DNA from: an uncultured delta proteobacterium
Lineage (GTDB): Bacteria > Desulfobacterota > Syntrophorhabdia > Syntrophorhabdales > WCHB1-27
Assembly (NCBI GenBank): GCA_963717985.1
Contig: CAVQYC010000005.1
Coordinates: 265,106-329,105, forward strand
Reading direction: 5' to 3'
DNA: 64,000 nt
Of this stretch, positions 36,310 to 63,774 are shown in pieces (the first letter of the stretch is position 1; every line of letters starts with the position of its first letter). The notes beneath the pieces are model-generated. The model worked only from the letters and a program-made list of their open reading frames with translations, ran no database searches and had not been told where the DNA came from. A program made the position numbers and the translations under genes.

Positions 36310-36315
36310 TGAGTC

Positions 36316-40093: not shown

Positions 40094-40265
40094 TGCGTCT
40101 CAAAAATTGTTGAAGCTCAGAGCGTTCTCCGCTATAAACAATGTACGCTGAAGATATCTTGACTTACTGGGTTCTAAACGGTTGTCTGCAAGGAATTCTA
40201 TGCGATACCGATGTGTGCCGATGAGTCTACCGCCAGTTCGGGTAAAATGCTCACCGCAAGGGGAA

Positions 40266-41732: not shown

Positions 41733-41892
41733 ACGGATCGTTTTGTTATGGTCTTTAACACAACTAACCCTCTGTCAGCGAGGTTTCCACAGGCATACGA
41801 AACAACGCATGCTGAAGATGGGTGTGCTTGCCGGAGTGTCACGGAGGGGCTATCTGTGAAAAGCCCTTGTGGATAAGTTTTACGCCTCTCCC

Positions 41893-44021: not shown

Positions 44022-44030
44022 CTATTGACA

Positions 44031-44915: not shown

Positions 44916-44949
44916 GGTGTGCCACCTCCGTCCGAAATAATGAGATGGT

Positions 44950-46809: not shown

Positions 46810-46811
46810 AA

Positions 46812-47831
46812 TCAATTGCCTTCAAAGTTACGGGATTCCGAGACGGAATATACCGGTTTCTGCTGGGATTCGTGATAGGTCCTGATAAGAATCTCAGCTA
46901 TCAGACCCATAAGAACGCACATGACGCCGGTGATGCTGCACATTATGAAGAGCAGGGGTAAAGGGGTTGAGATAAAAGCTTTGCCGTGGAAGAGCTTGTA
47001 GTACAGGCTGGCAACAGCCGAGCAAAATGCGGCCATGAGATTCAGGATTCCAAAGACACCGAAGACGTAAATCGGTTTCTGGGCATATTTGGCAAAAAAC
47101 TTTACCACGATGAGATCGAGGAGCACCTTGACCGCCCTTTCAATCCCGTACTTCGACTTGCCGTGTATCCTTGCATGGTGATTGACGGGGATCTCCGTGA
47201 CTCTCGCCCCTTCCCAAAAGGCATATATGGGGATGAAACGATGCATCTCGCCGTAAAGCTTGACCTCTTTTATAACCTCTTTTCTGTAAGCTTTAAGGGA
47301 GCAGCCGTAGTCGTGGAGATGGACCCCGGAAATCCAGGATATCAGGAAATTGGCAATGCGACTGGGCAGGTTGCGCCTCAAGGCATGGTCTTTGCGGTTC
47401 TTACGCCATCCCGAGCACACGTCGTACCCTTCTTCCAGCTTGGCAAGCAAAAGCGGTATATCCTGCGGGTCGTTTTGGAGGTCTCCATCCATGGGAACCA
47501 GCACATCCCCCGAGGAAAAATCGATTCCCGCCATCATCGCCGCCGTTTGACCAAAATTTCTCCGGAAGTGGATCACTTTTACCCGGAGGTCCCTTTCGGC
47601 CAGTTTGTCCAGGGTACTCTTAGTTCCGTCGGTAGATCCGTCGTTAATGAAAATCAATTCGAACGGGCAACCAAGGATTGGCGCCACATTCAACACCATT
47701 TCATAAAGGGGCAGGATATTTTGTTCCTCATTGTAAACAGGTACGATGAAAGATAGAAGCCCGAGCCATGAGGGGTCAGTCATGGTTCTTGCCCGGGGCG
47801 CGTCTGCATCAAAGGGATGAGGGGTTTTCAT
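46812..47831 (-). CDS. GT2 polyprenyl-phosphate glycosyltransferase (GtrB/ArnC/DPM1-like)
   Basis: VPVYNEE, INDGSTDGT, MDGDLQNDP and two C-terminal TM helices. The ATG at 47831 forms an ATGA overlap with the upstream gene. Confidence 0.8.
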   Translation of the reverse strand: MKTPHPFDADAPRARTMTDPSWLGLLSFIVPVYNEEQNILPLYEMVLNVAPILGCPFELIFINDGSTDGTKSTLDKLAERDLRVKVIHFRRNFGQTAAMMAGIDFSSGDVLVPMDGDLQNDPQDIPLLLAKLEEGYDVCSGWRKNRKDHALRRNLPSRIANFLISWISGVHLHDYGCSLKAYRKEVIKEVKLYGEMHRFIPIYAFWEGARVTEIPVNHHARIHGKSKYGIERAVKVLLDLIVVKFFAKYAQKPIYVFGVFGILNLMAAFCSAVASLYYKLFHGKAFISTPLPLLFIMCSITGVMCVLMGLIAEILIRTYHESQQKPVYSVSESRNFEGN

Positions 47832-49210
47832 CCAACACGTTTGCACTCCGTTGAGCGGACTTTCCTGAACCAAAATATATAACAGGCAGCGGTCAGGTGT
47901 TCGCGCACGTTTTGCTTAATATCTGCCACGAAAACATTGCGCAGCCCACTCGCAATCATGCTCAGCAGAAAAACAGATATTATCAACGGATTCAGTATGA
48001 CTGAGATGCTTATATCTCCTTTTATAGGATAGTACGCCTTCGGAATCAAAAGCAATGCGAAAAGAATCGAGTAGAGGAGGTCTGCTCCGCTCCTTTCCTT
48101 GGAATTGAGAAATAGCCACATGGGTATGTACAAGTTGAGAAGCCTGTAATCGGCCGTTACAAAGGGGAAAAATATCATACTCAGTGTCAGGATCGCCACT
48201 TTTTTCCATAGTTCTTTCTCTACCAACACTATGTACAGAGCAACAAGTGCAAAAAGCAGCAAGGAGACCCAATAATAGGTTCTGTAAAGCAGCAGTAGGC
48301 GCGGGGCCGATACTTGCGGAGCCCACGCGTAAATCGCTGCCTTAAGCGCTCCGAAGGCGCTCGAGCAAAACGCCGCTCCCCCGTCGCCTATCACGTATAG
48401 AGCGTTGTAAGTATTCCGAGGGTCCCCAGAGCTCTTGATTATTGAAGTAAAGCTTGAAAAGCGAAAAGTGATGCCTTGGAGGCTATTATAAGTCAACCCA
48501 GACAAGACGAGCAGGGTGCCCCCGAAGATGGCTATGTCTTTGTACCTTTTTTCTGATAAGTAAAGAAGGAAAAATATGACGGGGTAGATTTTCAGCGCCG
48601 TTGCTGCGGCGAGGAAGATGGCGCTTATCCATGTCTTATTAGAGCGAAAAAAGTACACAAATAGAGACAACAATATGAAGGCAAAACCTTCGACATTTCC
48701 TCTATCCAGGGTAAAAAGTACGGGATAAGAGAGGAATGACAAAACGAAGAGGCCAAGAATAAGGCTGACCGGGGACATCTTCGGGAAAGATCCCGACAGT
48801 AGATTCTTCAGGTTGTAAAACAGCACATACAGAGCTATCGTTACGGTGTAGACTAGAAAAGACACGTAGGCGTTCTTGAAAGAGATCAGATAAAGGAACC
48901 GCCACACGAAGTATGCCAGTCCTGATGTGCCGACCATGCCTTCACCATGACCGGCTGTTACGTAAGTGAGCGAGTTAAAGTAATCCATGAATCTATCCCC
49001 AGGTTGAAACAGGAAAGTATTGAAGGGATATCCCAGATGCATATACGTGCCCATGAAGTAGTGAAAAAGAGCGGACAAAATGAACCCAGTGAACACGATG
49101 AAGGAAACGATGCTGATCTTGTCCTTTCTCTCCAAAGATATCTTTGCCCATCTCGAAGTTTTCAGGAATGACAGGAAGGCGCTATTTTTACTGAAGAAAG
49201 TTTTGTGCAT
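47828..49210 (-). CDS. Uncharacterised polytopic membrane protein (GT-C or polymerase candidate)
   Basis: 460 aa, about 12 TM segments, with an LKIYPVIFFLLYL segment reminiscent of DUF2029/GT87-type proteins. Family assignment is weak. Confidence 0.45.
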   Translation of the reverse strand: MHKTFFSKNSAFLSFLKTSRWAKISLERKDKISIVSFIVFTGFILSALFHYFMGTYMHLGYPFNTFLFQPGDRFMDYFNSLTYVTAGHGEGMVGTSGLAYFVWRFLYLISFKNAYVSFLVYTVTIALYVLFYNLKNLLSGSFPKMSPVSLILGLFVLSFLSYPVLFTLDRGNVEGFAFILLSLFVYFFRSNKTWISAIFLAAATALKIYPVIFFLLYLSEKRYKDIAIFGGTLLVLSGLTYNSLQGITFRFSSFTSIIKSSGDPRNTYNALYVIGDGGAAFCSSAFGALKAAIYAWAPQVSAPRLLLLYRTYYWVSLLLFALVALYIVLVEKELWKKVAILTLSMIFFPFVTADYRLLNLYIPMWLFLNSKERSGADLLYSILFALLLIPKAYYPIKGDISISVILNPLIISVFLLSMIASGLRNVFVADIKQNVREHLTAACYIFWFRKVRSTECKRVG

Positions 49211-49278: not shown

Positions 49279-51747
49279 TCAGTTTATCCGCTCGTACACA
49301 CTCACGAGCTCCCCTTTCGCGATTTTTCTATAGTTGTTTCTTACCCCATCGAATACTTTTTTCAATTCAAGGAGTCTTCCGTATCTTGAAGCCCTCTCAT
49401 TTTTGTCGAAATTACTGATAAATAGTGTATTCCATGGATCGAAGGGCTTGTTGGTGAGATCGATATCCGTATCCACGAAGAGGAATCGCGCGCGGTTCTT
49501 TTCAATGCTATCAACCGCCACCGCAGTATCCTCACGGGAAATCAAAGCCCAAGACAGTTCGAACTGGGGCATGCGGCTGTATTTACGAGCGAGAAATGGC
49601 AGAAGATTATCATACCGTGAGATAATGAAAATCCCGTCATCCGCTTCGCTGTATTTGTCTATGAGCGAGACGGCCTCTGTCAGTGGGGAAGGATTGATTG
49701 TCGTTATCACTTTTGCCCTCGGAAACTGCCAGTGATAGACGCGATGATCGGTGAAGTTATTATAAAACTCTTGTTTACCGGTGTAGTAACTAACGGCTGC
49801 AACTAACATAAGCAGGAAGAAACCGGCGGTAAGAGCCGCTACCCCCATGCGCAGTTTGTCTCTTGCTTCTTCCCTTTCCCTGAGGAGTACTTTATGCGCG
49901 ACGAAGAGCATAAGAAAGAGCTGTACTCCGAGAAAGGGAAGGACCAAAGGAAGATGGTTGAGAAAGCCGGACCAGTAGAAGTAAACGAGCAACCCCTGGC
50001 TGTACATGAAGCTGAACGTATAGAGGTATTTGACAGGTTCTCTGTGAGGCCTCAATAAGAGCATGAATGCATAGGATACGACCAGGTAAAAAAGCGTCAA
50101 TACCACAATCACTCTTTCGGGCTCCCATGAGAAGTAGCCGAGAAGGAAGTAGTGGAAATCGTGAGCCGATTTTCCGGCGGGCAGAAGAAGAAGCAGGGCA
50201 ACGTCCAAGGCAAGCATGGCGACAGTGATTGCAACCGCAGGATAAGTTCCTTTTTTGTAGAAGTTTTCAAGAATGAAAAGGCCTGCGATGAGGACAAAGG
50301 CTGTAGAAAGGATCGCCCCGAACTGAAAGCTGCACAATAGGGCCAGCGTTGAGGCAAGCGCCGCAAGGCCGAGAAAGATCAAGTTCTTCCGCGAAAAAAA
50401 CAGGACCAGCAGAATGAGTACCACTACATCGAACATGTGACCCGAAGGCATTATGCCCGGAGCTAACACGAAGCCTATAAAGCCTGTCCAGAAGAAAGCG
50501 AGGGCATAGACGGCGAAAGATCCGAGCGTGAACAGGCGATCCCCCTTGAACAGCATTCTCAGCATAATGAAGAAGAGCGCTGCGTAGATCAAATAGAATA
50601 CGTAGCACTTGTAGTACCCCTGGAGGGAGAGGTCTCCAGACAGGTCTGTCACCCATTTCATGAGAAACGTGTTCCCAACGCCATACTGAAAGTACGATTG
50701 GTCTAGTGGCCTGCCTAGCGCATATTCATTGAGTGGGTTAAGGATGTGGCCGATATGGTTGATCTGCCCCCTAGTCATGTTCTGATGTTGGTATTCCAAC
50801 ACATTGTTGAGATAGAAGCTCTTTATGTCTTCGATATCGGTGTTCGGATTCCGGATTGTCGAATTATCACCAAGTTTCTCTCCACCCTCGAGCGTAGAAG
50901 GTTCGTTCACCTTGCGATCGAGGTCATGGTATGCCTCGATCGGCCTGAGGTCCTCACTCTTCACGAAGGCAAGGACGACTGATCGGGATTTGATCGTCCT
51001 GTAGTTAATCGCTTTGTATCGATTCCTTAGGTCCTGAAATAAGGTGAAATCATATGCATTCTCGTGAAACCGGCCCAAAAACTCTCTGTTATTAACGTAC
51101 TTGTTTCTGATTAATGTCTCGCCATACAGGTCCTGGTACTCATTCATGAGATAAACCGGACCGAGCATGAGAAAGAAAGGCTCAAGAAGCAGCGCAAAAA
51201 GAATCAGATAGGAGCAGGCTAGCGACATTCGGGACAAGCGCCGGACAAGCGCCAGTTTGTCCGGCTTCCATGATGGAGTCAGAAAGAGTATCAGAGGAAT
51301 TACGAATATGAGGGCATAGACAGTGGGGCGTAATCCTGTAAAGAAAAAAGCGGTAGTGCCGAGACCGGATAAGGAAAGAATAGGTGACGCCACAAGGAGC
51401 AGGTATCCGATGCCATCGCTTTTGTTTCTTACGTAGCTTGTCAGTCTCCCGGTATAGAGGCATAGAGCACAAGCCCCGAGGAACGCAGCAACAATCACAT
51501 AATTGAATAGAGAACTCTCGGAGGGGTGGAAGAAGATATATACCCACGTATTGACATCGAGCTTCCCTATGACGGAGCTCTTCACGAAGGTAACCAGTTC
51601 CCACAGAAGAAGCGCCGCACCCGTCACCGAGAGCATGAGCTGAATGGTCAATAAGATAGTCTTACGTTCCGACAAGTTCCGAAAAGTCTCCTTGGTTATT
51701 CTGCGACTTTTGAGGAAAGGCTTGCCCTGCTGCGTGCGCTTGGGCAA
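49279..51747 (-). CDS. Large uncharacterised polytopic membrane protein (822 aa) in the GtrC position
   Basis: TM bundles occupy residues ~30-210 and ~390-650. They are separated by a ~170-aa hydrophilic insert, and a ~150-aa soluble C-terminus follows. TTG start, so the start is uncertain. No motif recognised. Confidence 0.5.
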   Translation of the reverse strand: MPKRTQQGKPFLKSRRITKETFRNLSERKTILLTIQLMLSVTGAALLLWELVTFVKSSVIGKLDVNTWVYIFFHPSESSLFNYVIVAAFLGACALCLYTGRLTSYVRNKSDGIGYLLLVASPILSLSGLGTTAFFFTGLRPTVYALIFVIPLILFLTPSWKPDKLALVRRLSRMSLACSYLILFALLLEPFFLMLGPVYLMNEYQDLYGETLIRNKYVNNREFLGRFHENAYDFTLFQDLRNRYKAINYRTIKSRSVVLAFVKSEDLRPIEAYHDLDRKVNEPSTLEGGEKLGDNSTIRNPNTDIEDIKSFYLNNVLEYQHQNMTRGQINHIGHILNPLNEYALGRPLDQSYFQYGVGNTFLMKWVTDLSGDLSLQGYYKCYVFYLIYAALFFIMLRMLFKGDRLFTLGSFAVYALAFFWTGFIGFVLAPGIMPSGHMFDVVVLILLVLFFSRKNLIFLGLAALASTLALLCSFQFGAILSTAFVLIAGLFILENFYKKGTYPAVAITVAMLALDVALLLLLPAGKSAHDFHYFLLGYFSWEPERVIVVLTLFYLVVSYAFMLLLRPHREPVKYLYTFSFMYSQGLLVYFYWSGFLNHLPLVLPFLGVQLFLMLFVAHKVLLREREEARDKLRMGVAALTAGFFLLMLVAAVSYYTGKQEFYNNFTDHRVYHWQFPRAKVITTINPSPLTEAVSLIDKYSEADDGIFIISRYDNLLPFLARKYSRMPQFELSWALISREDTAVAVDSIEKNRARFLFVDTDIDLTNKPFDPWNTLFISNFDKNERASRYGRLLELKKVFDGVRNNYRKIAKGELVSVYERIN

Positions 51748-51759: not shown

Positions 51760-52212
51760 TCATCTATTCTTAAAGGAGAACTTCGAGTGTCCTACATAAC
51801 TTATGATGACACAGGCGAGGATCACGAGAGCGGCCGCGAACTTTGGAGTGAGCCTGAAGAATTCGACGAAGACAGGCAAAAGCACGAGGCTTAGCAGAAA
51901 AGTGCCGACATAGGTGAGGCAAAATCGAATAAACTCGATTATGAGAGAGGTACCCTCTTTAGTTGACCTGAAAGTAATGTACTTGTGGAAGACATATGCA
52001 TTGATGACCGAAATGATGTTTGAGACGATATTGGCACTCATATACGTGAGGTAACGGGTCTGAAAGACACCGGTAAAAAGCGTGTCAAAGAGAACGAACA
52101 TCAGATATCCGAATAGGGTATTCCACGCCCCGACAGCGACGAACCTCGCCTTCGTTTCATGTCTCTTATAAAGAGACAGATAGTGAGTTGATTCCGTGAT
52201 TGACATCTGCAT
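51760..52212 (-). CDS. gtrA: GtrA-family small membrane protein (polyprenyl-P-sugar translocase-like)
   Basis: 150 aa with 4 TM segments. FVAVGAWNTLFGYLMFVLF is the GtrA-family N-terminal signature. Confidence 0.75.
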   Translation of the reverse strand: MQMSITESTHYLSLYKRHETKARFVAVGAWNTLFGYLMFVLFDTLFTGVFQTRYLTYMSANIVSNIISVINAYVFHKYITFRSTKEGTSLIIEFIRFCLTYVGTFLLSLVLLPVFVEFFRLTPKFAAALVILACVIISYVGHSKFSFKNR

Positions 52213-52285: not shown

Positions 52286-53227
52286 TTATGGCTTCTCGAA
52301 GCCTATCTTTTGATTGACAATGAAACTCGGCCTCGCCTTCACTTCCTCGTATATCTGCGCGATATACTGCCCCAATATCCCGAGGATGAAGAAAAGGATT
52401 CCGAACATCAACACGATGAGTGAAACGATTGTGCCATACCCGGCGAAGGGGACACCTTTCAAAATTATCCTGGCCACGGTAAACAGGAGATAGAGGAGCG
52501 ATACTCCCGATACAAATACACCGAAAACTGAGATGGAGCGAATGGGGATGTACGAGAAGGCAAATATGCTGCTCACGGCGAGCTGGACCACGTGAAACGA
52601 ATGGGCATGGGACTGCCCGGAAAACCTCCTGGCGCGCTCGTATTCCACCCCGACGGACTTGAAGCCGGTCCATGCGACCATGCCGCGAATAAAGCGGTTG
52701 CGCTCTTTCATGAAATTGATCGTTTCGTATACCTTTCGGTCAATAAGTCTGAAATCGCTCACGTTCTGTGGAATGAGATCATCGGTCATGACGTTTATTA
52801 TCTTGTAAAAGAGCACCGAGTTGAACCGCCTCAATAACCCCTTGCCCGTCCTCTTCTTTACTATGCCATAGACGTTTTCATACCCTTCTTCCCATCGCTT
52901 GATGAACTCGGTGATGACCTCCGGTCTGTCCTGCAGGTTTGCCGTCATAATAACGGCGGCATCGCCCCTGGCGTGGCTCAGCCCCGCCGTGATGCCCCCA
53001 TCCATCCTAAAATTCCTTGATAACTGGACAATCTTGAAACGTCTGTCCTCTTCGTTGACCTTGAGCATCTTTTCGAATGTGTGGTCTTGGGAGCCGTTTT
53101 CAACCAGGATGACTTCGAAATCATACTTATCGTTCTCATTGAATACAGCCTTGAGCTGCCGGGCCAGCTCGTCTACGTTGCCTTCCTCATTGTATGCTGA
53201 GGCAACTATGCTTATCAGTTTTTTCAC
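52286..53227 (-). CDS. gtrB: GT2 polyprenyl-phosphate glycosyltransferase (GtrB/ArnC-like)
   Basis: SAYNEEGNV, VENGSQDHT, MTANLQDRP and two C-terminal TM helices. Confidence 0.8.
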   Translation of the reverse strand: MKKLISIVASAYNEEGNVDELARQLKAVFNENDKYDFEVILVENGSQDHTFEKMLKVNEEDRRFKIVQLSRNFRMDGGITAGLSHARGDAAVIMTANLQDRPEVITEFIKRWEEGYENVYGIVKKRTGKGLLRRFNSVLFYKIINVMTDDLIPQNVSDFRLIDRKVYETINFMKERNRFIRGMVAWTGFKSVGVEYERARRFSGQSHAHSFHVVQLAVSSIFAFSYIPIRSISVFGVFVSGVSLLYLLFTVARIILKGVPFAGYGTIVSLIVLMFGILFFILGILGQYIAQIYEEVKARPSFIVNQKIGFEKP

Positions 53228-53344: not shown

Positions 53345-54415
53345 TTAACGCAACTGATCTGAAGCGATGTCAAGGGCTTTGCCCGCTTCCTGTTCGGTGA
53401 GGTCGTGTACTCTGTACATTTGATTGTTGTCGCCCATCATCACGAGGGCCAGCCCAATGCCTGTCCGTTTCTTGTCTTTCTTCATGCCTTCGATCACGCT
53501 TGCACGATCGAAGTAGTCGCTCCTCACCTTGACGGCAAGGCTCGGCAGGAGCAGCTCACGCATGATGAACTGATAGAACTCATCGGAAAGAAGGCCCCGT
53601 TCCCGGGCGACTATATTCGCAAGGAGCATGCCCAGAACAACCGCTTGTCCGTGGGGAATCTCGTACCTGGCTGCCGATTCGATGGCGTGTCCGAAGCAGT
53701 GACCGAAATTGAGCATGTTGCGTCTACCTGTATCGAACTCGTCTTCCGTAATAAATCCTTTCTTGATTAAGAGGGAGCTCTGTACGCTTTCAAGGAGAGC
53801 ATCGGGTTCCCTTCCAATGATGGCAGGTAATGCCGCTATGATGCGGTGCATACTATCGGTTCCCCCGATCATGTGGAGCTTCACCACTTCACCGAGACCG
53901 CTGTAAAAGTCGACGTCCTCCTGGGTGAGAAGGAACGGCGTATGGATCAGGACCTGCGAAGGTGGATAGAAGGTGCCTATCAGGTTCTTGAATGCCTTAT
54001 AGTTGAGGGACGTCTTGGCGCCGATGCAGCTATCCGCCTGGGCGAGCAGCGTGGTGGGAATGAAAACCCAGTTTATGCCCCGGTAGAGGGTAGAGGCGGC
54101 AAAACCTGAAATATCCTGCAGAATGCCCCCCCCAATGGAGATAAGCGTCAGATTTCGCTTGGCGCTCCGTTGAACCAGGTAGTCATAAAGCTTTTGAACG
54201 CTCTCCAGGGATTTCAGCTCCTCCTCGATGGGGAGCACGATAACGTCTGAATGGCGCAGGTCCTTGAGCGGCCCCTCGGAATAAAGACGCCATACGTTCT
54301 TATCGATGGCATAGCACCGCTCTCGATATTGTTCGAGTTCCTGTAGAAACTGAAAGGATTCAGGGAAGCTCACCGTGTAGTCGCGGATATTCGATTTGAT
54401 GGTAATCAAAGACAC
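53345..54415 (-). CDS. 3-dehydroquinate synthase-like enzyme (sugar phosphate cyclase superfamily)
   Basis: Nucleotide-binding GGGILQD, metal-binding NFGHCFGHAIE and HGQAVVLGM, arranged collinearly with the AroB motifs GGGVIGD, GHTFGHAxE and HGEAVAxGM. Confidence 0.75.
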   Translation of the reverse strand: MSLITIKSNIRDYTVSFPESFQFLQELEQYRERCYAIDKNVWRLYSEGPLKDLRHSDVIVLPIEEELKSLESVQKLYDYLVQRSAKRNLTLISIGGGILQDISGFAASTLYRGINWVFIPTTLLAQADSCIGAKTSLNYKAFKNLIGTFYPPSQVLIHTPFLLTQEDVDFYSGLGEVVKLHMIGGTDSMHRIIAALPAIIGREPDALLESVQSSLLIKKGFITEDEFDTGRRNMLNFGHCFGHAIESAARYEIPHGQAVVLGMLLANIVARERGLLSDEFYQFIMRELLLPSLAVKVRSDYFDRASVIEGMKKDKKRTGIGLALVMMGDNNQMYRVHDLTEQEAGKALDIASDQLR

Positions 54416-55080
54416 GTAAACCCCCCGTCGACCATGATGATCTGCCCCGTGACGTACGAGTTCCTGTCCGAGGCAAGAAAGGCGGCCACTTCCGCGATTT
54501 CTTCGGGTTCGGCCAGCCGGCCGACAGGGATAGTCCTTTCAATTGCCTCTATTTCTGCCCCGGTATTGTTCCGGCGCGTCAACTCCGTGTTGACGTAACC
54601 CGGTGCGAGTGCGTTTACGAGGACATTGTAAGGGGCCAGCTCAACGGAAAGGGTCCTTGTCATTCCTCCCAGGCCGGCCTTGGCGGTAGAGTACATGAGC
54701 CTTCCCGCCTTGGTGACGACGGCCCAGACAGAGCTGATATTGACGATCCTCCCGTAGCGCCGTTCCATCATTGAGGGCGCAAGGGCCCTAGCGAGGCGAA
54801 GTGGAGCGAGAAGGTCGATCTGTATGGTGTCCTGAATATCAGGGTCGGCTATCTCGGCCAAAGAGGCTATAATGTTGATCCCCGCATTGTTAATGAGAAT
54901 ATCGACAGGCTGTTTCAGCGACCGCACGTAAGCGTCTATGGACGCGCCCGACAAAAGGTCCATTTCCGTGCGGGTTGGCGCTATGATATCGACCCCGTCC
55001 GCGTGCAGCCTCTTACCGATGGCGAGCCCGATGCCCCTCGACCCTCCCGTAACCAGCGCCGTTCGCCTGTCCGTGTTCAT
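54406..55080 (-). CDS. Classical short-chain dehydrogenase/reductase
   Basis: TGGSRGIGLA (TGxxxGIG), NNAG and the catalytic YSTAK (YxxxK). Confidence 0.85.
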   Translation of the reverse strand: MNTDRRTALVTGGSRGIGLAIGKRLHADGVDIIAPTRTEMDLLSGASIDAYVRSLKQPVDILINNAGINIIASLAEIADPDIQDTIQIDLLAPLRLARALAPSMMERRYGRIVNISSVWAVVTKAGRLMYSTAKAGLGGMTRTLSVELAPYNVLVNALAPGYVNTELTRRNNTGAEIEAIERTIPVGRLAEPEEIAEVAAFLASDRNSYVTGQIIMVDGGFTCL

Positions 55081-55099
55081 CGTGCTTTCGTGTCCCTAC

Positions 55100-55897
55100 C
55101 TACGTCCGGGACTGCTCATGGCGAGCTTCGAGCATCGAGATTCTTTTTTCGTCCTCTTCCGCGATGGTTTTGTAGTAACTTCTCTTGTTTTGCAGCCACA
55201 GCAGCTCAAATTCGACGGCCTTTTCTATCCCTTTTTCGGCGCCATCCTTCAGGGCGGCCGGGCAGGAGAAACATATCTTCCTCGTTTCATACCTGTCGAT
55301 CATCACGCCGTCTGAAAGCCGTCTCAGGAAGGGCAGGGCATCCGCCGATATGCCGCCCCCCACAACCACCGTCATCTTTTTTTCCTTGGCTACGGTGAGT
55401 ACGTCCTTTGTAATGGCAAAAATTTTGTCGCTGTCACATGCGCTCCTGCCAAGCCCCATCGACCCCACGAGGTCAACCCTGCCGACCACTATCCCGCCCA
55501 GTTTCTCTATGCCCGGGATTTTTATCATGTTGCCGAAGTTCTGCGCAGTCATTAGTGTTTCGACGTTGATCAGGAATTCAATCTTCTCCTGTTCGTCTTT
55601 CGGGAACACGAGGTCAATTACTTTCAGGTATTTTTGAAGGGCAAAGGGTGTTTCAACCATGGGAGCGACGAGATAATTGACTCCAACGGTGCGGGCATCG
55701 TACATGTCCCGAACAGCTTCGCAGCCACCGATCTTAAGCGTCAGCGCCACCTTCGCCGTCATGCAGATCTCTTTCAGCCGCATAAGCTCTTCGGTTCGTG
55801 TCCCCTCCGCCTCGAATTCGGCTTTCACCCCAACGACCGCGTGGTTGTCTCTTAGTTCTTTGAGCACGTCCACTATCTTGATCTCTATCGCGTTCAT
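55100..55897 (-). CDS. HpcH/HpaI-like TIM-barrel aldolase/lyase family protein (paralogue 1)
   Basis: FEAEG, LVAPMVETPFAL, INVET and GRVDLVGSMG parallel the HpcH/citrate-lyase-beta motifs (xPMVET, IEt, GxxDLS). Family assignment rests on pattern only. Confidence 0.55.
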   Translation of the reverse strand: MNAIEIKIVDVLKELRDNHAVVGVKAEFEAEGTRTEELMRLKEICMTAKVALTLKIGGCEAVRDMYDARTVGVNYLVAPMVETPFALQKYLKVIDLVFPKDEQEKIEFLINVETLMTAQNFGNMIKIPGIEKLGGIVVGRVDLVGSMGLGRSACDSDKIFAITKDVLTVAKEKKMTVVVGGGISADALPFLRRLSDGVMIDRYETRKICFSCPAALKDGAEKGIEKAVEFELLWLQNKRSYYKTIAEEDEKRISMLEARHEQSRT

Positions 55898-55922
55898 GTC
55901 ACACCCCTAATGAGGCTAAGAT

Positions 55923-56723
55923 TCAAGCCTCAATTATCTTCCAGTACTGGTCTTCGATGACCCCGATTCTTTGTCTGTCCAGAGATGCTATCGCGTCGTA
56001 GTAGCTCAGTTTGTTGCGAAGCCACAGGAGCTCGAATGCAAGGGCCTTAAGGATACCCTTTCCCAGGTCAGCCTTTTTACCTTTCGTATAATCGAAGCAA
56101 ATCTTTCGCGTCTCGCACCGATCCAGACGGCCCTCAGGGAGTCGCGAAAAAAACGGCAAAGAATGAGCCGACACACCTCCTCCGATGGTACAACTCAGAC
56201 CTTTTGTCTTCGCCTTTGCGGTTACACCGGCTATCAGCTCATTGATTTCCTCATCATTGATGCACCGCTCGTCCCTTCCCAGGGAAAAACACAAATCGAC
56301 CCGCTCGATTACGATGCCGTCGAGCGACCCTATTTCCGGGACCTCCAGCATCTCGACGAAATTGTCTATAGCAGTTGCAGTCTCCACATTGCAAAGTATT
56401 TCGACATGTTGCTCCCGTTGGTCTTTCGAAAAGAGCTTGCTCACGGCCTGTAGATATTTGCGTAGTGCATAGGCGGATTCGACCATGGGCGCCACGAGAT
56501 AGTTCACCCCTACCACCCTGGCTTCGAGCATATCCCTTATTGATTCGCAGCCGCCTATCTTCAAGGTGAGTCCGAGTTCGGCGGCCATGCAGATCTCTTT
56601 CAGCCGAAGCAGTTCCTCGAGCTTGGTCCCCTCCTGCTCGAACTCGGCACGAATGCTTAATGCCCCATGCTTTTCCTTCAGTTCCCTGAGGACATCCAGC
56701 ATCTTGTACTCTAATGTATTCAC
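55923..56723 (-). CDS. HpcH/HpaI-like TIM-barrel aldolase/lyase family protein (paralogue 2)
   Basis: Collinear with 55100-55897 and about half identical by eye: FEQEG, LVAPMVESAYAL, CNVET, ERVDLCFSLG. Confidence 0.55.
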   Translation of the reverse strand: MNTLEYKMLDVLRELKEKHGALSIRAEFEQEGTKLEELLRLKEICMAAELGLTLKIGGCESIRDMLEARVVGVNYLVAPMVESAYALRKYLQAVSKLFSKDQREQHVEILCNVETATAIDNFVEMLEVPEIGSLDGIVIERVDLCFSLGRDERCINDEEINELIAGVTAKAKTKGLSCTIGGGVSAHSLPFFSRLPEGRLDRCETRKICFDYTKGKKADLGKGILKALAFELLWLRNKLSYYDAIASLDRQRIGVIEDQYWKIIEA

Positions 56724-56753: not shown

Positions 56754-58568
56754 CTACTCCTTGAGCGGCTCTAATATCATATTACTGAGCATCTCTTCTC
56801 TCGACAAAAATGGATACATGTCTTCGAGAGGCTTTGATACAATCCTTCCGTCCGGCTCTTTCTTGGATGAAACGCGGGGACTGAAATTCTGTTCAGGTGA
56901 GAGGATGACTTCACAAACCACAGGTCCCGGGGTTGTCAGTACCTCTTCTATCCTTTCTTTCAGGCCAATCTGGTTGGCGATAACGGCCGAAGGGATTCCA
57001 TAGGCGACCGCGACCCGACAAACATCGGGGAAGGTAACGCCGCTGCTCGGACCGCACGCAACATACCTGCTCTCGAAAAAGCTGTCCTGCGTCTGCCTGA
57101 TGGATACGTAGCCGCCGTTGTTCAGAACAAAGAGTTTTACGGGGACTTTGTGATGGGATAACGTCTGCAACTCCTGTATGTTCATTTGCAGGCTCCCGTC
57201 CCCCGCCAGGCACACGACCGGATTTCCCGATGAGCCGAGGCAAGCGCCTACGGCCGCCGGCAGGTCGTATCCCATGGAGGCACATCCCGAGTTCCAAAAG
57301 AAACGCTGCCCGTCCTTTACGATTCCTGCCTGAAAGAGTGTTACGCAAGCGGTTCCGTTTCCCGCGACCACGATTGCCCTTTCGTCGAGGGCCTCGGTTA
57401 ATGTCTGCATGAAACAGTAAGGATTGACGGGCTCTTTACGCTCCCAGTATTCGGTAAGCACGACCGGGTAGCGCTCTCTGCGCTCACGGCACCAGTCGAT
57501 CCAGGGTTGGCGGTTAGGGAAGGAGGCTATTTCCACTGCTTCCTTGAAACGGCGCAGGAACTCTGTAGCATCGGCGCGGATAGCGACATCGGGAAAAAAG
57601 GTCGGTTTCTTCAGCTCCGCCTCATCTATGTCCACAACGACCTTTATCGCGTTCTTGGCAAAATCACCTGAATTGTAACTCACCTGGCGGATATTGTTCC
57701 TGGAGCCGACCGATATGAGCAGGTCGGCGTTCTGGAGCGCGAAATTTCCAAACCTTGACCCGAGTGTTCCGGGCCTTCCGGCAAAAAGACGATGGCTTGA
57801 AGGTATGAGATCGAAGCCGCAGAATGAGGCAAGTACGGGAATTTGGATCTTATCTACCACCTGCCTGAACAGGTCGATGCCTTTGCTTATCCGGATGCCC
57901 TGTCCGGCCAGAAAAATGGGACGCTCGGCTTTTTGCAGCAGTGCGACCACCTGGGCGACTTGCCGCGAGAGCGCGGCCCCGTCGAACGGCATCTCGTCTT
58001 CCCGGTTGTCGTAGGGGGTGAGGCCATCGGGATCAACGAGGGCCGCCTGCACGTCGAGGGGTATGTCGAGCCAAACCGGGCCGGGCCGTCCGTGCGTGGC
58101 GAGATAGATCGCCTTATCAAGGTGATAGCGGATGTCCTGCGGACCTTTTACGATTGCCGTATACTTTGTCACGGGCCTCACGATATCCGTGATGTTGATT
58201 TCCTGGTCGCCGAGTTGTCTGAGGCTCAATTCGCGGCACGATTCTATTGTTGTTTCTTGCTTTACCTGTCCCGAGAGATAGAGAACAGGCACGGAGTCGA
58301 GCCATTGTCCAATGACGCCGGTGAGGGCATTGGTGCCGCCCGGACCGCTGGTCACGACCACGACGGCGAGCTTGCCCGTGACGCGGGAATACCCTTCTGC
58401 CGCAATGGCAGCCGCTTGCTCATGATGGGGACATATGTATTGGAGGCCCGGCTGCTTCCCTACGGAGTCAACTAGGTGCATCGCCCCTCCTCCAGAGATC
58501 ATAAAAACATCACGCACGGCATACTCGGTCGCAAGGCGGTTAGTCACATAGTCGGTCAACTTGATCAT
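56754..58568 (-). CDS. Thiamine-diphosphate-dependent enzyme, acetolactate-synthase-like (YerE-like candidate)
   Basis: 604 aa. N-terminal Pyr domain (ISGGGAMHL, VTSGPGGTNA) and the ThDP motif GDGSLQMNIQEL...NNGGY, with 24 residues counted between GDG and NN. Confidence 0.8.
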   Translation of the reverse strand: MIKLTDYVTNRLATEYAVRDVFMISGGGAMHLVDSVGKQPGLQYICPHHEQAAAIAAEGYSRVTGKLAVVVVTSGPGGTNALTGVIGQWLDSVPVLYLSGQVKQETTIESCRELSLRQLGDQEINITDIVRPVTKYTAIVKGPQDIRYHLDKAIYLATHGRPGPVWLDIPLDVQAALVDPDGLTPYDNREDEMPFDGAALSRQVAQVVALLQKAERPIFLAGQGIRISKGIDLFRQVVDKIQIPVLASFCGFDLIPSSHRLFAGRPGTLGSRFGNFALQNADLLISVGSRNNIRQVSYNSGDFAKNAIKVVVDIDEAELKKPTFFPDVAIRADATEFLRRFKEAVEIASFPNRQPWIDWCRERRERYPVVLTEYWERKEPVNPYCFMQTLTEALDERAIVVAGNGTACVTLFQAGIVKDGQRFFWNSGCASMGYDLPAAVGACLGSSGNPVVCLAGDGSLQMNIQELQTLSHHKVPVKLFVLNNGGYVSIRQTQDSFFESRYVACGPSSGVTFPDVCRVAVAYGIPSAVIANQIGLKERIEEVLTTPGPVVCEVILSPEQNFSPRVSSKKEPDGRIVSKPLEDMYPFLSREEMLSNMILEPLKE

Positions 58569-59713
58569 GCGTTGCAGTCTCTGTTTGCTTCCTGATCCAT
58601 GGAGGAATCAGCCTTTTTCCAGGGTCTCTTGCCGCCTTCCCGTTTCACCCGATGCCACTCGACCGTCTTCTTGATGGCGCTTATGAAGTCAACGTCTTGT
58701 CTTAACCCAAGTTCCTGACGCGCCTTCGAGGTACTTGGCACGTACCGCTCGGCCTGAAGGCCGGGCGCCTTCTTTTCGTTTATCGTGACCTGTTGGGGCG
58801 GGTCAAAGCAGTCGGCGACGGCGCGGGCGGTTTCGGAGATGGAAACGGCTTGTTCAGACCCCACATTATACGCAGACCCTGCCTTTCCCTTGAAAAGAAG
58901 GACCCATAGCCAGATGGCGAGATCCGAGGCGTAGAGATAGGAACGGAGGGGCGTCCCATCTCCCTTTACCACAATGGGACCCCCGTTGAGGCCATCCCGG
59001 ATAAAGTTCCCTATGGCAAAATGTGTGTCCAGATTCAAATAGGGTCCGACAAAGGCGAAACAGCGTGCGATCACGGTGTCAATCTCATAAGAACGGTGGT
59101 AAGTGGAACAAAGGAGCTCCCCCAATCTCTTGGCCTCACCATACGCCGAGCCGGGATCAAGGGGGTTGGGACCGCCGGAATAACTCTCGGCCACATGGCC
59201 TATGTGGGCGGACTGTTTCCCGTATACAGCCCCTGAGCTGATGAAAAGGAAACGCTCCGTTCCTCGATTCCTCGCCAGCTCCAGAACGGCTTGCGTCCCT
59301 TCGGTAATCGTTTGTACCATCAGCAGGGGAGTTTCCTTGTTCAATGCTGCACTCGCCTGGGCTGCCCCATGTATCACCGCGTCGAATGAGCCTTGGGGCC
59401 ATGCGAAGGTCCTCACATCACCCTGAGTGAACTGAAGGGCGGGATGGGAAGCAAGACGAGGACTGTTCCTCTTGAATGAGTCGAAGTCCCTGGTGAGGAC
59501 AGTCATCCGGGCTCGAAGGTCAAGTTTGTCGCAAGCCCACGTGAAGCTCTCAAGAAGCCACTTCCCGATGAAACCCGTTCCCCCGGTAACGAATATCGAT
59601 TTTCCCCGGAGCTGTTCCCATATCTCTCGCGTGGACGCCAGGATATGATCGAGATCGGAGGATAGCGGATTCTCGCGATTCGTCGTGCGACTGCCGGAAG
59701 GCCTTATTCCCAA
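58565..59713 (-). CDS. Extended SDR, NAD-dependent epimerase/dehydratase/reductase family (YerF-like or RfbS/RfbE-like candidate)
   Basis: VTGGTGFIGKWL Rossmann motif and the catalytic YGEAK (YxxxK). Confidence 0.75.
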   Translation of the reverse strand: MGIRPSGSRTTNRENPLSSDLDHILASTREIWEQLRGKSIFVTGGTGFIGKWLLESFTWACDKLDLRARMTVLTRDFDSFKRNSPRLASHPALQFTQGDVRTFAWPQGSFDAVIHGAAQASAALNKETPLLMVQTITEGTQAVLELARNRGTERFLFISSGAVYGKQSAHIGHVAESYSGGPNPLDPGSAYGEAKRLGELLCSTYHRSYEIDTVIARCFAFVGPYLNLDTHFAIGNFIRDGLNGGPIVVKGDGTPLRSYLYASDLAIWLWVLLFKGKAGSAYNVGSEQAVSISETARAVADCFDPPQQVTINEKKAPGLQAERYVPSTSKARQELGLRQDVDFISAIKKTVEWHRVKREGGKRPWKKADSSMDQEANRDCNA

Positions 59714-60426
59714 TCATCCACCTTGATGCTGCTTTCGGCTACCCCGGCCGCCGTCAAGCAGGACCTAAAGTCCCTAATCATCTGAAGGGGACCGGACAAA
59801 TAGTATACCGAAGCTGTCTCTGCCTTGTTTTCGGCATATATCTCTTCTATAGGGATGATACCCTGTCTGCATCGGCCGACGCCGTCCACGATGCTTCCAT
59901 CCTCGAAATAACAGGAATATTTAAAATCCGCCAATTGCTTCGCGCATTCTCTCAGAAGATCACCACAGATCAAGTCGGCGCCGGTCCTTACTCCGTAGTG
60001 GAGCCTGATCTGTGTGCCTGCCTGTTTATCAAGGCACTGCTCGAGAAAAGAGAGAAAAGGAGTCACTCCGGTGCCCCCTGCGATAAGAACAACCGGGTGG
60101 TCACTCAAGAAAGTGAAGCTCCCGTAAGGCAGCTTCACAAACAACTCGTCACCCTCTTTCACCTCGTGGAACATTCTGGAGGTGAAGGGGCCTTTTACCG
60201 CGAAGACAATCCTCAGTGGATCCCGTGAAGGGGCGCTTGCTATGGAGAAGACGCGTGATTCGGGCCAATGACTTGCGGGGTCATAGGGATCGAGTGCCAG
60301 GTGAAGAAATTGTCCTGGCTTGAAGACGGGGCATTTTTTCAGGGGTCTGAGAAGAAAGGTCTTGACCTTATCGGTATGCTGGATGACGGCTTCTACGACA
60401 ACGGGGATTTTTATCGGCGTAGTCAA
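59704..60426 (-). CDS. FNR-like FAD/NAD(P)H oxidoreductase (E3/AscD/DdhD-like, lacking the ferredoxin domain)
   Basis: FAD motif RVFSIAS and NAD(P) motif GGTGVTPF. At 240 aa it starts directly with the FAD beta-barrel. No Cys-rich 2Fe-2S N-terminal domain is present. Confidence 0.7.
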   Translation of the reverse strand: MTTPIKIPVVVEAVIQHTDKVKTFLLRPLKKCPVFKPGQFLHLALDPYDPASHWPESRVFSIASAPSRDPLRIVFAVKGPFTSRMFHEVKEGDELFVKLPYGSFTFLSDHPVVLIAGGTGVTPFLSFLEQCLDKQAGTQIRLHYGVRTGADLICGDLLRECAKQLADFKYSCYFEDGSIVDGVGRCRQGIIPIEEIYAENKAETASVYYLSGPLQMIRDFRSCLTAAGVAESSIKVDDWE

Positions 60427-61743
60427 CTAATGGTTCCTCAGGAACCGATCGAAGTGCTCGATGATGTAATCGATCTGCGGGTTGCCGAGACCGGGAAAGA
60501 CCCCGATAAAAAAAGTGTTCTCCATGATATAATCGGTGTTCCCCAGGTCGCCGATCTGTCGTTTTTCGATGTCCGCATAAGCCGGCTGGCGCGTCAGGTT
60601 CCCGGAGAAGAGGTTGCGCGTCTCGATCCCGTTTTGTTCGAGATAGGTGGACAGCTCGTTCCGGGTGAAGCCGCTGTTCTTCCTGACGCTTATGACAAAA
60701 CCGAACCAGGAAGGATCGCTGTGAGGGGTCGGCTCGGGCAAGAGCAGCCGGTCCTCGAACTGCCGCAACCCCTTGAGGATGCGGTCAAAATTCTCTTTTC
60801 TTTTTTCGATGAAGCCTTCCAGCTTATCGAGCTGCGCAACTCCTATGGCCGCCTGCATGTCGGTGGCCTTTAAATTGTATCCTATGTGTGAGTAAACGTA
60901 CTTGTGGTCATAGCCAAGCGGCAGGGTGCCGAATTGCTGCGTGAACCTCTTTCCGCAGGTATTGTTTTCACCTCCGCTGCAATAGCAGTCCCTTCCCCAG
61001 TCGCGAAAGGAGCGGACGATTCTTGCAAGATCTTCTGAGTTGGTAAGGACGCAGCCGCCTTCACCCATGGTAATGTGATGCGCCGGGTAGAAGGAACATG
61101 TGGCAAGGTCGCCGAAGGTGCCTGTCAGCTTTCCGGTATACCTGCTGCCCAAGGCGTCGCAATTATCTTCGATGACCCAGAGATTGTTTTTCCTCGCTAT
61201 TTCGACCACTGCCTCGACTTCGAAAGGATTCCCCATGGTGTGGGCCATGAAGATGGCGCGGGTCAGGGGACCTATAGCATCTGCGACCTGCTCGACAAGG
61301 GCATTGTAGGTTCCCAGGTGAACGTCGACAAAGACGGGAATGAGTCTGTTTTGAACGATCGGCGCCACTGTGGTGGGAAAACCTGCCGCTGCCGTGATGA
61401 CCTCGTCTCCCGGCTTGAGCCGCCTCTCTCCCAGCTTGGGGGACGTGAGGGCGCTGAGTGCCACAAGATTGGCGGACGAGCCGGAATTTACGAGGACCGC
61501 ATCGGAGAGGTCGAAGAAACCGGCGAACCTTGACTCGAATTCCTCTGCGTACCGGCCGGCAGTAAGCCAGAAATCGAGCGACGCGTCGACAAGATTGATC
61601 ATTTCCCGTTCGTCAAAGACCCGTCCTGCATAGCGGACGGGGGTTTTTCCGGGAATGAACGGACTCGCGCCGCAGCGCTGCCGGTGAAGCCGTCTTACCA
61701 AATCAAAAATGTCGCTTCTAATCTGCTCTTCTTCCCGCGTCAT
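60427..61743 (-). CDS. ddhC: CDP-6-deoxy-L-threo-D-glycero-4-hexulose-3-dehydrase (E1; RfbH/DdhC/AscC)
   Basis: DegT/RfbH-type blocks NSGSSANL, SFYPAHHITMGEGG (His in place of the PLP Lys) and GYDHKYVYSHIGYNLKATDMQAA. The E1 iron-sulfur motif C-X57-C-X1-C-X7-C was counted directly (EDNC ... RDCYCSGGENNTC). Confidence 0.9.
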   Translation of the reverse strand: MTREEEQIRSDIFDLVRRLHRQRCGASPFIPGKTPVRYAGRVFDEREMINLVDASLDFWLTAGRYAEEFESRFAGFFDLSDAVLVNSGSSANLVALSALTSPKLGERRLKPGDEVITAAAGFPTTVAPIVQNRLIPVFVDVHLGTYNALVEQVADAIGPLTRAIFMAHTMGNPFEVEAVVEIARKNNLWVIEDNCDALGSRYTGKLTGTFGDLATCSFYPAHHITMGEGGCVLTNSEDLARIVRSFRDWGRDCYCSGGENNTCGKRFTQQFGTLPLGYDHKYVYSHIGYNLKATDMQAAIGVAQLDKLEGFIEKRKENFDRILKGLRQFEDRLLLPEPTPHSDPSWFGFVISVRKNSGFTRNELSTYLEQNGIETRNLFSGNLTRQPAYADIEKRQIGDLGNTDYIMENTFFIGVFPGLGNPQIDYIIEHFDRFLRNH

Positions 61744-62836
61744 CAGTGAGCATCCGTTCCATGTAGTCTTTGATCTGGTCTACGTTCACTCGGGCCATAT
61801 CGGCGTTCCCGCTGGATGCCCTGTACCACTCGACCGTTCTCTTGACCGCCTCCTGTACCCGGAGGCATGGCGTCCAGCCGAGCTTATAGCGGGCCTTGTT
61901 GATGTCGAGGATAAGCAGACCGTCTTCATGCGACTGATTATCGACCGCGGTCGATTCCCATGACCCCGATCCCCATTCTGATACTACGAGTCCGACAAGC
62001 TCGCCGACGGTTATAGTAGAATATCTTTCGGGGCCGAAGTTCCATGGGCCGCTGTACATATCCGGATGCTCGCTCATCATCGCCCCGAGGAGCAGGTAGC
62101 CGCCGAGGGGCTCCAGGACGTACTGCCATGGCCTTATAGCATAGGGACTCCTGACCTTTATCGCCTCTCCCGTTTCAAGAAACCTGATGCAGTCAGGCAC
62201 GATCCGGTCTTTGGACCAATCGCCGCCGCCTATCACATTTCCCGCCCGCACCGTGGCGAGAGCCTTTCCGTATGGTTGCGGTCTGTTGCCGTTGAAGAAG
62301 GACTTCGCGTAAGCCGCGCTTATAAGCTCCGAACAGCCCTTGCTCGCGCTGTAGGGGTCATGACCGCCCATAGGGTCGCACTCCCTGTATCCCCAAAACC
62401 ATTCCTTGTTCTCATAGCACTTGTCGCTTGTCACATTAACGATTATCCCGGCCGAATCTGAAAGTCTGCAGCTCTCCAAAACATTGACGGTGCCCCCCAG
62501 ATTCGTGTCAAACGTCTCCTTGGGGCTTTCGTAACCTTTCATTACGAGCGCCTGGGCTGCGAGGTGGAAGACAAACTCCGGCTTGAACTCTTCGAAGACC
62601 TTCCGGAGTGCTCCTAAGTCTCTCACATCGCCACGGACGTCAACGATCCGATCCCCCAACCGTGAGACTACGAAATTGTCACGGGCGGTACGGGGATCAA
62701 GGGCATACCCGACGACATGAGCACCAAGCTCGGCCAGCCAGAGCGCGAGCCAGGAGCCCTTAAATCCTGTGTGGCCGGTTATCAGGACTCTGCGGTCACG
62801 GTAGCACTTTTGAAGGAGATCAGCCGCGCGTCCCAT
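61718..62836 (-). CDS. rfbG: CDP-glucose 4,6-dehydratase
   Basis: VLITGHTGFKGSWLALWL and YSASK are typical RfbG signatures. The ATG at 62836 lies 1 nt after the rfbF stop. The ORF track extends the frame to 62881. Confidence 0.9.
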   Translation of the reverse strand: MGRAADLLQKCYRDRRVLITGHTGFKGSWLALWLAELGAHVVGYALDPRTARDNFVVSRLGDRIVDVRGDVRDLGALRKVFEEFKPEFVFHLAAQALVMKGYESPKETFDTNLGGTVNVLESCRLSDSAGIIVNVTSDKCYENKEWFWGYRECDPMGGHDPYSASKGCSELISAAYAKSFFNGNRPQPYGKALATVRAGNVIGGGDWSKDRIVPDCIRFLETGEAIKVRSPYAIRPWQYVLEPLGGYLLLGAMMSEHPDMYSGPWNFGPERYSTITVGELVGLVVSEWGSGSWESTAVDNQSHEDGLLILDINKARYKLGWTPCLRVQEAVKRTVEWYRASSGNADMARVNVDQIKDYMERMLTDDAGRRAD

Positions 62837-62837
62837 T

Positions 62838-63605: not shown

Positions 63606-63774
63606 GATAGTACCTCGTTCATGCGGGTGAGAGGCGGGCAATCATCGACAAAAAGTGTGCGCTTCGCCACAGATTTGGGTCGGCGCAACAGATGAAGCAT
63701 CGAGATTGGTCGCCGCTGGAAAATGCAATATTGACAAACACGACCGATAGCATACGGCTAAGAAGACAAGGAAT

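Follow-up and report, generated by a model that had tools for sequence, protein, structure and literature searches.

The window analyzed here, a 64,000-nt stretch of DNA from an uncultured delta proteobacterium (GenBank assembly GCA_963717985.1, contig CAVQYC010000005.1, positions 265,106 to 329,105 of the forward strand), carries a four-gene cassette directly downstream of a gene for a YerE-like thiamin diphosphate (ThDP)-dependent carboligase. The cassette encodes two tandem HpcH-like aldolases, a classical short-chain dehydrogenase/reductase (SDR), and an enzyme resembling 3-dehydroquinate synthase (DHQS). A previous examination of the letters alone (the sequence-only reading) had proposed four genes here, and open reading frames, all on the minus strand, lie at exactly 53345-56723. 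We suggest, with a probability of about 0.6, that these genes form the donor-supply module of a caryophyllose-type pathway for acyl-branched 3,6-dideoxyhexoses, in which the DHQS-like enzyme would eliminate phosphate and the SDR would reduce a ketone. The cassette and the sugar genes upstream of it are as follows.

62838..63641, minus strand: ddhA/rfbF, glucose-1-phosphate cytidylyltransferase (TIGR02623, 411.9 bits; cut-off 300)
61718..62881, minus strand: ddhB, CDP-glucose 4,6-dehydratase (TIGR02622, 455 bits; cut-off 278)
60427..61743, minus strand: RfbH/DdhC (E1), 3-dehydrase dependent on pyridoxamine phosphate (NF011936 RfbH, 706 bits; cut-off 423)
59704..60426, minus strand: FNR-type reductase, DdhD/E3-like, 240 aa (Pfam NAD_binding_1; FNR-like NCBIfam matches over residues 10-235)
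58565..59713, minus strand: extended SDR, candidate YerF-like reductase of the branch C1' ketone (Epimerase/GDP_Man_Dehyd Pfam matches; putative role)
56754..58568, minus strand: YerE-like ThDP-dependent carboligase, 604 aa (TPP_N, TPP_M, and TPP_C domains)
55923..56723, minus strand: HpcH-like aldolase paralog A (the extra copy), 266 aa (PF03328, 37.7 bits)
55100..55897, minus strand: HpcH-like aldolase paralog B, 265 aa (PF03328, 28.1 bits)
54406..55080, minus strand: classical SDR, candidate ketoreductase, 224 aa (adh_short_C2, 162 bits)
53345..54415, minus strand: DHQS-like NAD+/metal enzyme, proposed phosphate-eliminating lyase, 356 aa (TIGR04425, 406.4 bits; cut-off 400)

All genes between 64 kb and about 33 kb lie on the minus strand. 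The gene set for CDP-4-keto-3,6-dideoxyglucose is complete: ddhA, ddhB, and RfbH exceed their NCBIfam equivalog cut-offs and are followed by the FNR-type reductase. The extended SDR overlaps the start of the ThDP gene, and the junctions downstream are as short as the letters had suggested, with gaps of 30 nt between the ThDP gene and HpcH-like A, 25 nt between A and B, and 19 nt between B and the SDR, and an overlap of 10 nt between the SDR and the DHQS-like gene. Many related loci have a homolog of the extended SDR (50-68% identity) closely upstream of their ThDP gene. In the DdhD/E3-like reductase, which starts right after RfbH, we detected only an NAD-binding FNR-type module and no ferredoxin domain; the protein is too short for the 2Fe-2S ferredoxin domain of classical E3. 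Homologs of similar length (~242 aa) occupy the equivalent position in five related loci (L005, L006, L009, L010, and L012). A 210-aa open reading frame on the plus strand (57843-58475), antisense within the ThDP gene, is most likely spurious.

The closest matches of the ThDP enzyme among solved structures are 8rph (421 bits, labeled as a ThDP-binding protein) and 5ahk (278 bits), which we take to be JanthE and PpYerE, both YerE-like enzymes; acetolactate synthases score behind them. A phosphonate pathway built on phosphoenolpyruvate mutase and phosphonopyruvate decarboxylase was considered and rejected because the ThDP enzyme has the three-domain architecture of acetolactate synthase and YerE, and the barrel protein beside it matches HpaI.

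HpcH-like A and B share 51% identity (E = 8e-93), in line with the earlier estimate that two tandem HpcH/HpaI-like barrels are about half identical. Their match to PF03328 is partial, covering profile positions ~78-185 of 221, and scores above the gathering cut-off of 25 bits in both. We modeled HpcH-like A with AlphaFold (AF2) from 52 homologs (pLDDT 94.5) and compared the model to known structures with Foldseek. HpaI, YfaU, and HpcH, all of them metal-dependent pyruvate aldolases of class II, ranked first (E = 6e-10 to 1e-8, TM ~0.57-0.60, ~15% identity), and pyruvate kinase barrels and coenzyme A-ester lyases came next. A sequence search of the PDB with HpcH-like A yielded marginal matches only (E ~0.05), among them MfnB (MJ1099), which was taken as chance, the fold search favoring HpaI-type aldolases. 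In a HMMER alignment, E114 and D143 of HpcH-like A align with E153 and D179 of YfaU, which we take to be its metal ligands, and both are invariant in 52 sequences; a check of the catalytic residues of these aldolase-like proteins thus found the class II metal ligands kept. A and B both retain every family-invariant residue, and neither copy looks degenerate from its sequence. The position of the catalytic arginine (R70 in HpaI, R74 in YfaU) falls, by alignment offset only, at about K55/I56 within an invariant motif, LKIGGCE; R63 is also invariant. More than 3,000 proteins of the protein collection belong to the HpcH-like family. When the HpcH-like copies are placed in a neighbor-joining tree, all second copies fall into a single tight clade, but the first copies do not resolve.

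The DHQS-like protein matches the Pfam families DHQ_synthase (123 bits) and DHQS_C (106 bits). The NCBIfam model that it passes, TIGR04425, is a hypothetical equivalog named [quoted passage not shown], and its score against the aroB model TIGR01357 (263.4 bits) lies under the equivalog cut-off of 305. Compared to solved structures, it scores highest with genuine DHQS (130-164 bits), followed by ValA (110.6), DOIS (106.6), and 5tpr (73.5); the last is labeled 3-dehydroquinate synthase in the PDB and is presumably desmethyl-4-deoxygadusol synthase. We mapped active-site residues from the Aspergillus nidulans DHQS sequence, its numbering checked against chain 1dqs by an exact match over residues 104-372. 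All 13 A. nidulans active-site residues are present in the window protein (R130 as R112, D146 as D128, K152 as K134, N162 as N144, E194 as E176, K197 as K179, K250 as K218, R264 as R232, N268 as N236, H271 as H239, H275 as H243, H287 as H255, and K356 as K315) and are invariant across 45 family members with 54-83% identity. The NAD and metal ligand motifs that the sequence-only reading had picked out are both there. In DHQS, these residues bind zinc, phosphate, and carboxylate, with K250 and R264 as the carboxylate binders. Given this conservation, the substrate should closely resemble 3-deoxy-D-arabino-heptulosonate 7-phosphate (DAHP), i.e., a 2-keto-3-deoxy acid with a terminal phosphate.

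The gene that overlaps the DHQS-like gene is a classical SDR, as had been proposed, with the motifs TGxxxGxG (VTGGSRGIG), NNAG, and YxxxK (YSTAK) all seen in the translation. A shikimate-pathway context is absent: the DHQS-like gene sits in a glycan locus here and likewise in every related locus examined. Our literature search found nothing on TIGR04425, nothing on YerE together with a dehydroquinate synthase and an aldolase, no paper with both "dehydroquinate synthase" and "caryophyllose", and nothing relevant on bradyrhizose. The pair of DHQS-like enzyme and SDR is uncharacterized in the literature searched.

HpcH-like relatives occur in at least 375 genome species of many phyla. The best 79 loci of those with such relatives formed our comparison set, onto which the window proteins were mapped by tblastn; linkage was counted in those 56 that extend 3 kb or more to either side of the HpcH-like gene, and these loci are not phylogenetically independent. 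Those closest to the window come from deltaproteobacterial metagenome-assembled genomes (MAGs; 86%). The other hosts among the 79 loci are MAGs of Omnitrophota, Elusimicrobia, Nitrospira, Chloroflexi, Bacteroidota, Planctomycetes, Spirochaetes, Margulisbacteria, and Actinomycetota, and the isolate Sulfuriferula multivorans. Of the 56 loci, 54 have a ThDP gene, mostly within 100 nt upstream of the HpcH-like gene, and 43 have ddhA, ddhB, or ddhC within 10 kb. The search for co-occurrence in other genomes that had been suggested thus finds the HpcH-like gene linked to ThDP and ddh genes across phyla, and these counts bear out the idea that the four genes work together with the YerE-like and ddh genes. 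The SDR and DHQS-like genes agree in presence or absence in 55 of the 56 loci. From these presence counts, the constant core is the ThDP and HpcH-like genes, and the SDR and DHQS-like genes are a two-gene add-on. The twin aldolase arrangement is limited to about 20 of the 79 loci.

Three loci (L031, L070, and L083) carry more divergent SDR and/or DHQS-like genes with 34-41% identity, which in L031 and L083 lie upstream of the aldolase gene; these may be a second lineage of the add-on. The plasmid collection yielded just a Novosphingobium humi megaplasmid and a distant Ilyobacter match, neither of them informative. The former (L086; NZ_CP103869.1, 1001256-1026026) is an unannotated 1.06-Mb replicon from a cultured alphaproteobacterium. 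On it lie ddhA, ddhB, and a gene whose HpcH-like product has 48% identity, with no ThDP, SDR, or DHQS-like match within 12 kb.

Where a locus lacks the SDR and DHQS-like genes, its aldolase gene is mostly followed by one for a HAD-family phosphatase of the NagD-like IIA or the IA type. Pfam confirmed six examples, and hidden Markov models built from those found 22 in total; a HAD gene follows the HpcH-like gene in L013, L015, L016, L042, L044, L046, L047, L050, L054-L056, L060, L062, L065, L066, L071, L073, L075, and L076. Among the 56 loci, 32 have the DHQS-like and SDR genes only beside the HpcH-like gene, 14 have a HAD phosphatase only, one has both (L033, with a DHQS-like gene and a HAD gene), and nine have neither. 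The pair and the phosphatase are thus almost mutually exclusive (Fisher exact p = 1.7e-6, on loci that are not phylogenetically independent). Three of the loci with neither have more divergent pairs of SDR and DHQS-like genes. The HpcH-like sequences of the DHQS-type and HAD-type loci are intermixed, and no specificity columns separating the two types were found in the alignment. Because the two kinds of gene alternate while the aldolases are intermixed, the simplest reading of these sequences has the aldolase yield a phosphate ester. Its phosphate would be lost through hydrolysis, with a hydroxyl left at the chain end, or through a DHQS-type elimination followed by ketoreduction, with a methyl left there.

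The closest relative, L001, has a mosaic structure. Its ddhA and ddhB are 96% and 91% identical to those of the window, its four donor genes 91-95%, and its GT2 92%, and its ThDP enzyme is just 59% identical. L001 lacks ddhC, ddhD, and the extended SDR, in whose place stand an RmlD-like reductase and a methyltransferase (58502-61750 in the window against 4083-5922 in L001). The ThDP enzyme thus changes together with the acceptor sugar and the four genes do not, as expected if they make the donor, and the donor module is separable from the acceptor-specific part.

The sequence-only reading held that none of the four genes belongs to any known dideoxyhexose pathway, a view that is outdated. Steitz et al. 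2022 (PMC9306805) propose, and partly demonstrate, a unifying scheme for erwiniose, caryophyllose, and gastriose, in which an aldolase makes a functionalized C4-C8 alpha-keto acid, a YerE-like ThDP enzyme (ErwE, MMAR_2332, or MyGE) adds it to CDP-4-keto-3,6-dideoxyglucose, and a YerF-like reductase follows. ErwE refuses pyruvate and accepts gamma-hydroxy keto acids made by the aldolase (PMC9306805). Nor are the genetics of caryophyllose as obscure as had been supposed: mutants of Mycobacterium marinum in MMAR_2331 (an aldolase/citrate-lyase family protein), MMAR_2332 (ThDP), and MMAR_2333 (GT2) lose the sugar (PMC9306805). The annotation table in the supplement of PMC12395582 lists MMAR_2327 as GT87 family (RefSeq annotation), MMAR_2329 as DHQS-family, MMAR_2332 as a ThDP-binding protein, MMAR_2333 as GT2, MMAR_2334 as ddhA (glucose-1-phosphate cytidylyltransferase), MMAR_2335 as RfbH, and MMAR_2336 as ddhB (CDP-glucose 4,6-dehydratase). 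With the same families annotated in the same order, the link to caryophyllose is stronger than the earlier reading expected.

Caryophyllose of M. marinum is 3,6-dideoxy-4-C-(D-altro-1,3,4,5-tetrahydroxyhexyl)-D-xylo-hexopyranose, with a linear 6'-deoxy side chain. Working back, its donor must be 4,5,6-trihydroxy-2-oxoheptanoate (3,7-dideoxyheptulosonate), i.e., a DAHP-type acid without the 7-O-phosphate, and phosphate elimination followed by ketoreduction would yield just this compound.

Starting from the gene identities, the conserved linkage, the alternation with HAD, and the active-site conservation, all of them observed, we infer the substrates and products, the order of steps, and a non-cyclizing outcome for the DHQS-like enzyme as follows. 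DdhA-D would make CDP-4-keto-3,6-dideoxy-D-glucose. The HpcH-like class II aldolase(s) would join pyruvate to an aldose phosphate, most plausibly erythrose 4-phosphate, to give a DAHP-like 3-deoxyheptulosonate 7-phosphate; this may be DAHP epimerized at C4, and the need for a dedicated aldolase would then make sense. The DHQS-like enzyme, with bound NAD+ and metal, would oxidize C5 and eliminate phosphate across C6-C7. Either a conjugate return of hydride, as in sugar 4,6-dehydratases, would then give a 5-keto-7-deoxy acid, or a released 6-ketone would be trapped. The translationally coupled SDR would restore the alcohol, the net product being 3,7-dideoxyheptulosonate with a terminal methyl. 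The YerE-like enzyme would decarboxylate this acid and attach what remains, a C6 acyl anion, at position C4 of the CDP-keto-sugar, and the extended SDR (58565-59713) would reduce the branch ketone in the YerF role. A PgfS/ArnC-like GT2 would load the sugar onto polyprenyl phosphate, and GtrA and GT-C-type membrane proteins would pass it to a glycan outside the membrane. By analogy with M. marinum, the product is probably a caryophyllose-type C12 branched sugar. The earlier idea that the aldolases extend a carbon chain thus stands as far as chain building goes; direct extension of the sugar chain does not, the aldolases most likely building the keto-acid donor.

Several points weigh against this scheme. 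The free enol intermediate of DHQS cyclizes spontaneously, so for the ring to stay open the return of hydride would have to be altered, or the SDR would have to trap quickly. The invariant lysine (K55) that appears to lie near the position of the HpaI/YfaU catalytic arginine suggests that the aldolase chemistry may differ, and the scheme gives no reason for two aldolase paralogs. The nine loci with neither a DHQS-like nor a HAD gene, and the one with both, depart from the alternation. To our knowledge, TIGR04425, this HpcH-like subfamily, and MMAR_2329 are biochemically uncharacterized. Krug et al. 2024 reportedly surveyed more than 200 YerE-like clusters in silico, and their survey may already cover the module of the window. 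The parallel with M. marinum is one of annotation and gene order, and MMAR_2330 has no entry in the annotation table of the PMC12395582 supplement. A homolog search with the HpcH-like protein of L033, from an Actinomycetota MAG, returned only metagenomic relatives at ~70% identity and no Mycobacterium entry.

The same C7 donor could also arise by the reverse order of steps, in which the DHQS-like enzyme and SDR would turn erythrose 4-phosphate into a 4-deoxytetrose aldehyde and an aldolase would then condense this aldehyde with pyruvate. Such an order fits the condensation of pyruvate with an aldehyde published in PMC9306805, and it would supply aldehyde 28 of that scheme, whose origin the paper does not state and which we suppose to be a deoxytetrose. 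It accounts equally well for the alternation of HAD and DHQS-like genes. The aroB model, however, still scores 263 bits with the DHQS-like protein. The invariance of the presumed DAHP carboxylate binders (K250 and R264) and pyranose hydroxyl binders likewise points to a heptulosonate over a C4 aldose, and we regard the reverse order as unlikely, though worth keeping in mind. A role unrelated to the sugar, e.g., in a shikimate-like or keto-acid salvage route whose genes are mere neighbors of the sugar genes, seems highly improbable. The DHQS-like protein is indeed close to AroB, and HpcH-family enzymes are common in catabolism, but the YerE-like gene is linked across phyla, ddh and GT2 genes accompany the cassette in most loci, the junctions are tight or overlapping, and no shikimate genes lie alongside.

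The sequence-only reading had raised the closure of a carbocycle, for which we found no positive support. In its full form, the DHQS reaction would close a ring either on the free acid, leading after the SDR to a dehydroquinate- or quinate-like product, or on a phosphorylated side chain after ThDP coupling, leading to a caryose-like residue or substituent. The complete DHQS catalytic set is kept, the NCBIfam family name includes "(cyclizing)", and the alternation with HAD indicates only that phosphate is removed. Yet a cyclized free acid would lose its C2 keto group and leave the ThDP partner without the alpha-keto acid that it needs, and no ligase or acyltransferase that could attach a quinate-like acid consistently travels with the cassette in the related loci. 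The invariant carboxylate-binding residues speak against a bulky CDP-sugar as substrate. Moreover, the side chain of M. marinum caryophyllose is linear and 6'-deoxy even though the lipooligosaccharide (LOS) locus is annotated with a DHQS-family gene, and we know of no carbocycle in the published M. marinum LOS structures. We give ring closure a small chance. A broader form, in which TIGR04425 enzymes would close a ring on the phosphorylated chain that the aldolase supplies, whether ahead of ThDP coupling or following it, and so give caryose-related carbocyclic branched sugars in hundreds of mostly uncultured species, has in our view a slim chance; if true, the locus would provide the first genetics for carbocyclic caryose-related residues.

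The four-gene cassette is followed by four genes for glycosyl transfer and membrane proteins.

52286..53227, minus strand: GT2 polyprenyl-phosphate glycosyltransferase, PgfS/ArnC-like (NF047588 PgfS 232 bits, ArnC-type 132 bits, both below cut-off)
51760..52212, minus strand: GtrA-family small membrane protein (PF04138, 71.7 bits)
49279..51747, minus strand: 822-aa polytopic membrane protein, candidate transferase of the lipid-linked sugar (putative role)
47828..49210, minus strand: GT87-like (GT-C type) membrane glycosyltransferase (PF09594, 35.1 bits)

The GT2 gene comes after the cassette in most loci. The 822-aa protein, which has no Pfam or NCBIfam family match, contains about 14 hydrophobic segments in a Kyte-Doolittle scan, and homologs lie near the cassette in five other loci (L006, L008, L020, L027, and L028). 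Together, the GT2, GtrA, 822-aa, and GT87-like proteins suggest that the sugar is carried on polyprenyl phosphate and delivered on the outer side of the membrane.

The glycan locus extends through 33884-46815 (minus strand). This part encodes an AsnB-like amidotransferase (44950-46815, minus strand), a B12-binding radical SAM enzyme (40266-41732, minus strand), an LPG_synthase_TM-type membrane protein, two GT4 glycosyltransferases, and, besides an FkbM-type methyltransferase, at least five of class I; the glycan made here probably bears many methyl groups. An insertion sequence-type integrase (31562-32422, minus strand) with an rve core domain and HTH_21 borders the locus on its low-coordinate side.

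With the cassette in at least 375 genome species, caryophyllose-like branched sugars may be far commoner than the few known structures suggest. The kind of pathway is already known. The published scheme leaves the origin of the omega-deoxy polyhydroxy keto acid unsaid, and the pair of DHQS-like enzyme and SDR, alternating with HAD, offers a concrete answer. If confirmed, the dehydroquinate-synthase superfamily would gain a non-aromatic and probably non-cyclizing role, and functions could be assigned to MMAR_2329 and MMAR_2330 in a glycolipid pathway tied to the uptake and survival of M. marinum in macrophages. The end of the side chain would also become predictable from sequence, a methyl at DHQS-type loci and a hydroxymethyl at HAD-type loci.

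Compared to the class II pyruvate aldolases HpaI, HpcH, and YfaU, the HpcH-like pair shares the TIM-barrel fold and the conserved Glu and Asp metal ligands, but differs in its low identity, its partial Pfam match, its own invariant motif with a lysine near the catalytic arginine position, and its proposed acceptor, an aldose phosphate. The DHQS-like protein likewise shares with AroB and the sugar-phosphate cyclases (EEVS, DOIS, and DDGS) a fold family, the NAD motif, the zinc ligands, and all DAHP-contacting residues. What sets it apart is a gene that lies among glycan genes, is coupled in translation to that of an SDR, and can be replaced by one for a HAD phosphatase, together with a proposed outcome of phosphate elimination without ring closure.

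The systems behind erwiniose (ErwI/ErwJ-ErwE-ErwF), gastriose (MygI-MyGE-MygF), and yersiniose A (YerE/YerF) fall under one scheme, in which a YerE-like ThDP enzyme adds a functionalized alpha-keto acid from an aldolase to CDP-4-keto-3,6-dideoxyglucose before a reductase acts (PMC9306805). The pathway proposed for the window has the same steps, with the extended SDR as the candidate reductase. In the main text of that paper, neither a DHQS-like enzyme nor its SDR is given a role. The erwiniose aldolase is BphI-type, whereas that of the window is HpcH-like, and YerE uses plain pyruvate with no need of a donor module. The known system that the window most invites comparison with, by annotation and gene order only, is the M. 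marinum LOS locus (MMAR_2327 to MMAR_2336), which shares with it DHQS-family, aldolase/citrate-lyase, ThDP, GT2, GT87, ddhA, RfbH, and ddhB genes and, in the annotation table, the order DHQS, one unlisted gene, aldolase, ThDP. The window has two aldolase paralogs, a ddhD-like reductase, and a GtrA gene, which may or may not have counterparts in M. marinum, and it comes from an uncultured deltaproteobacterium-like organism, in which the stereochemistry of the sugar may differ from that in M. marinum.

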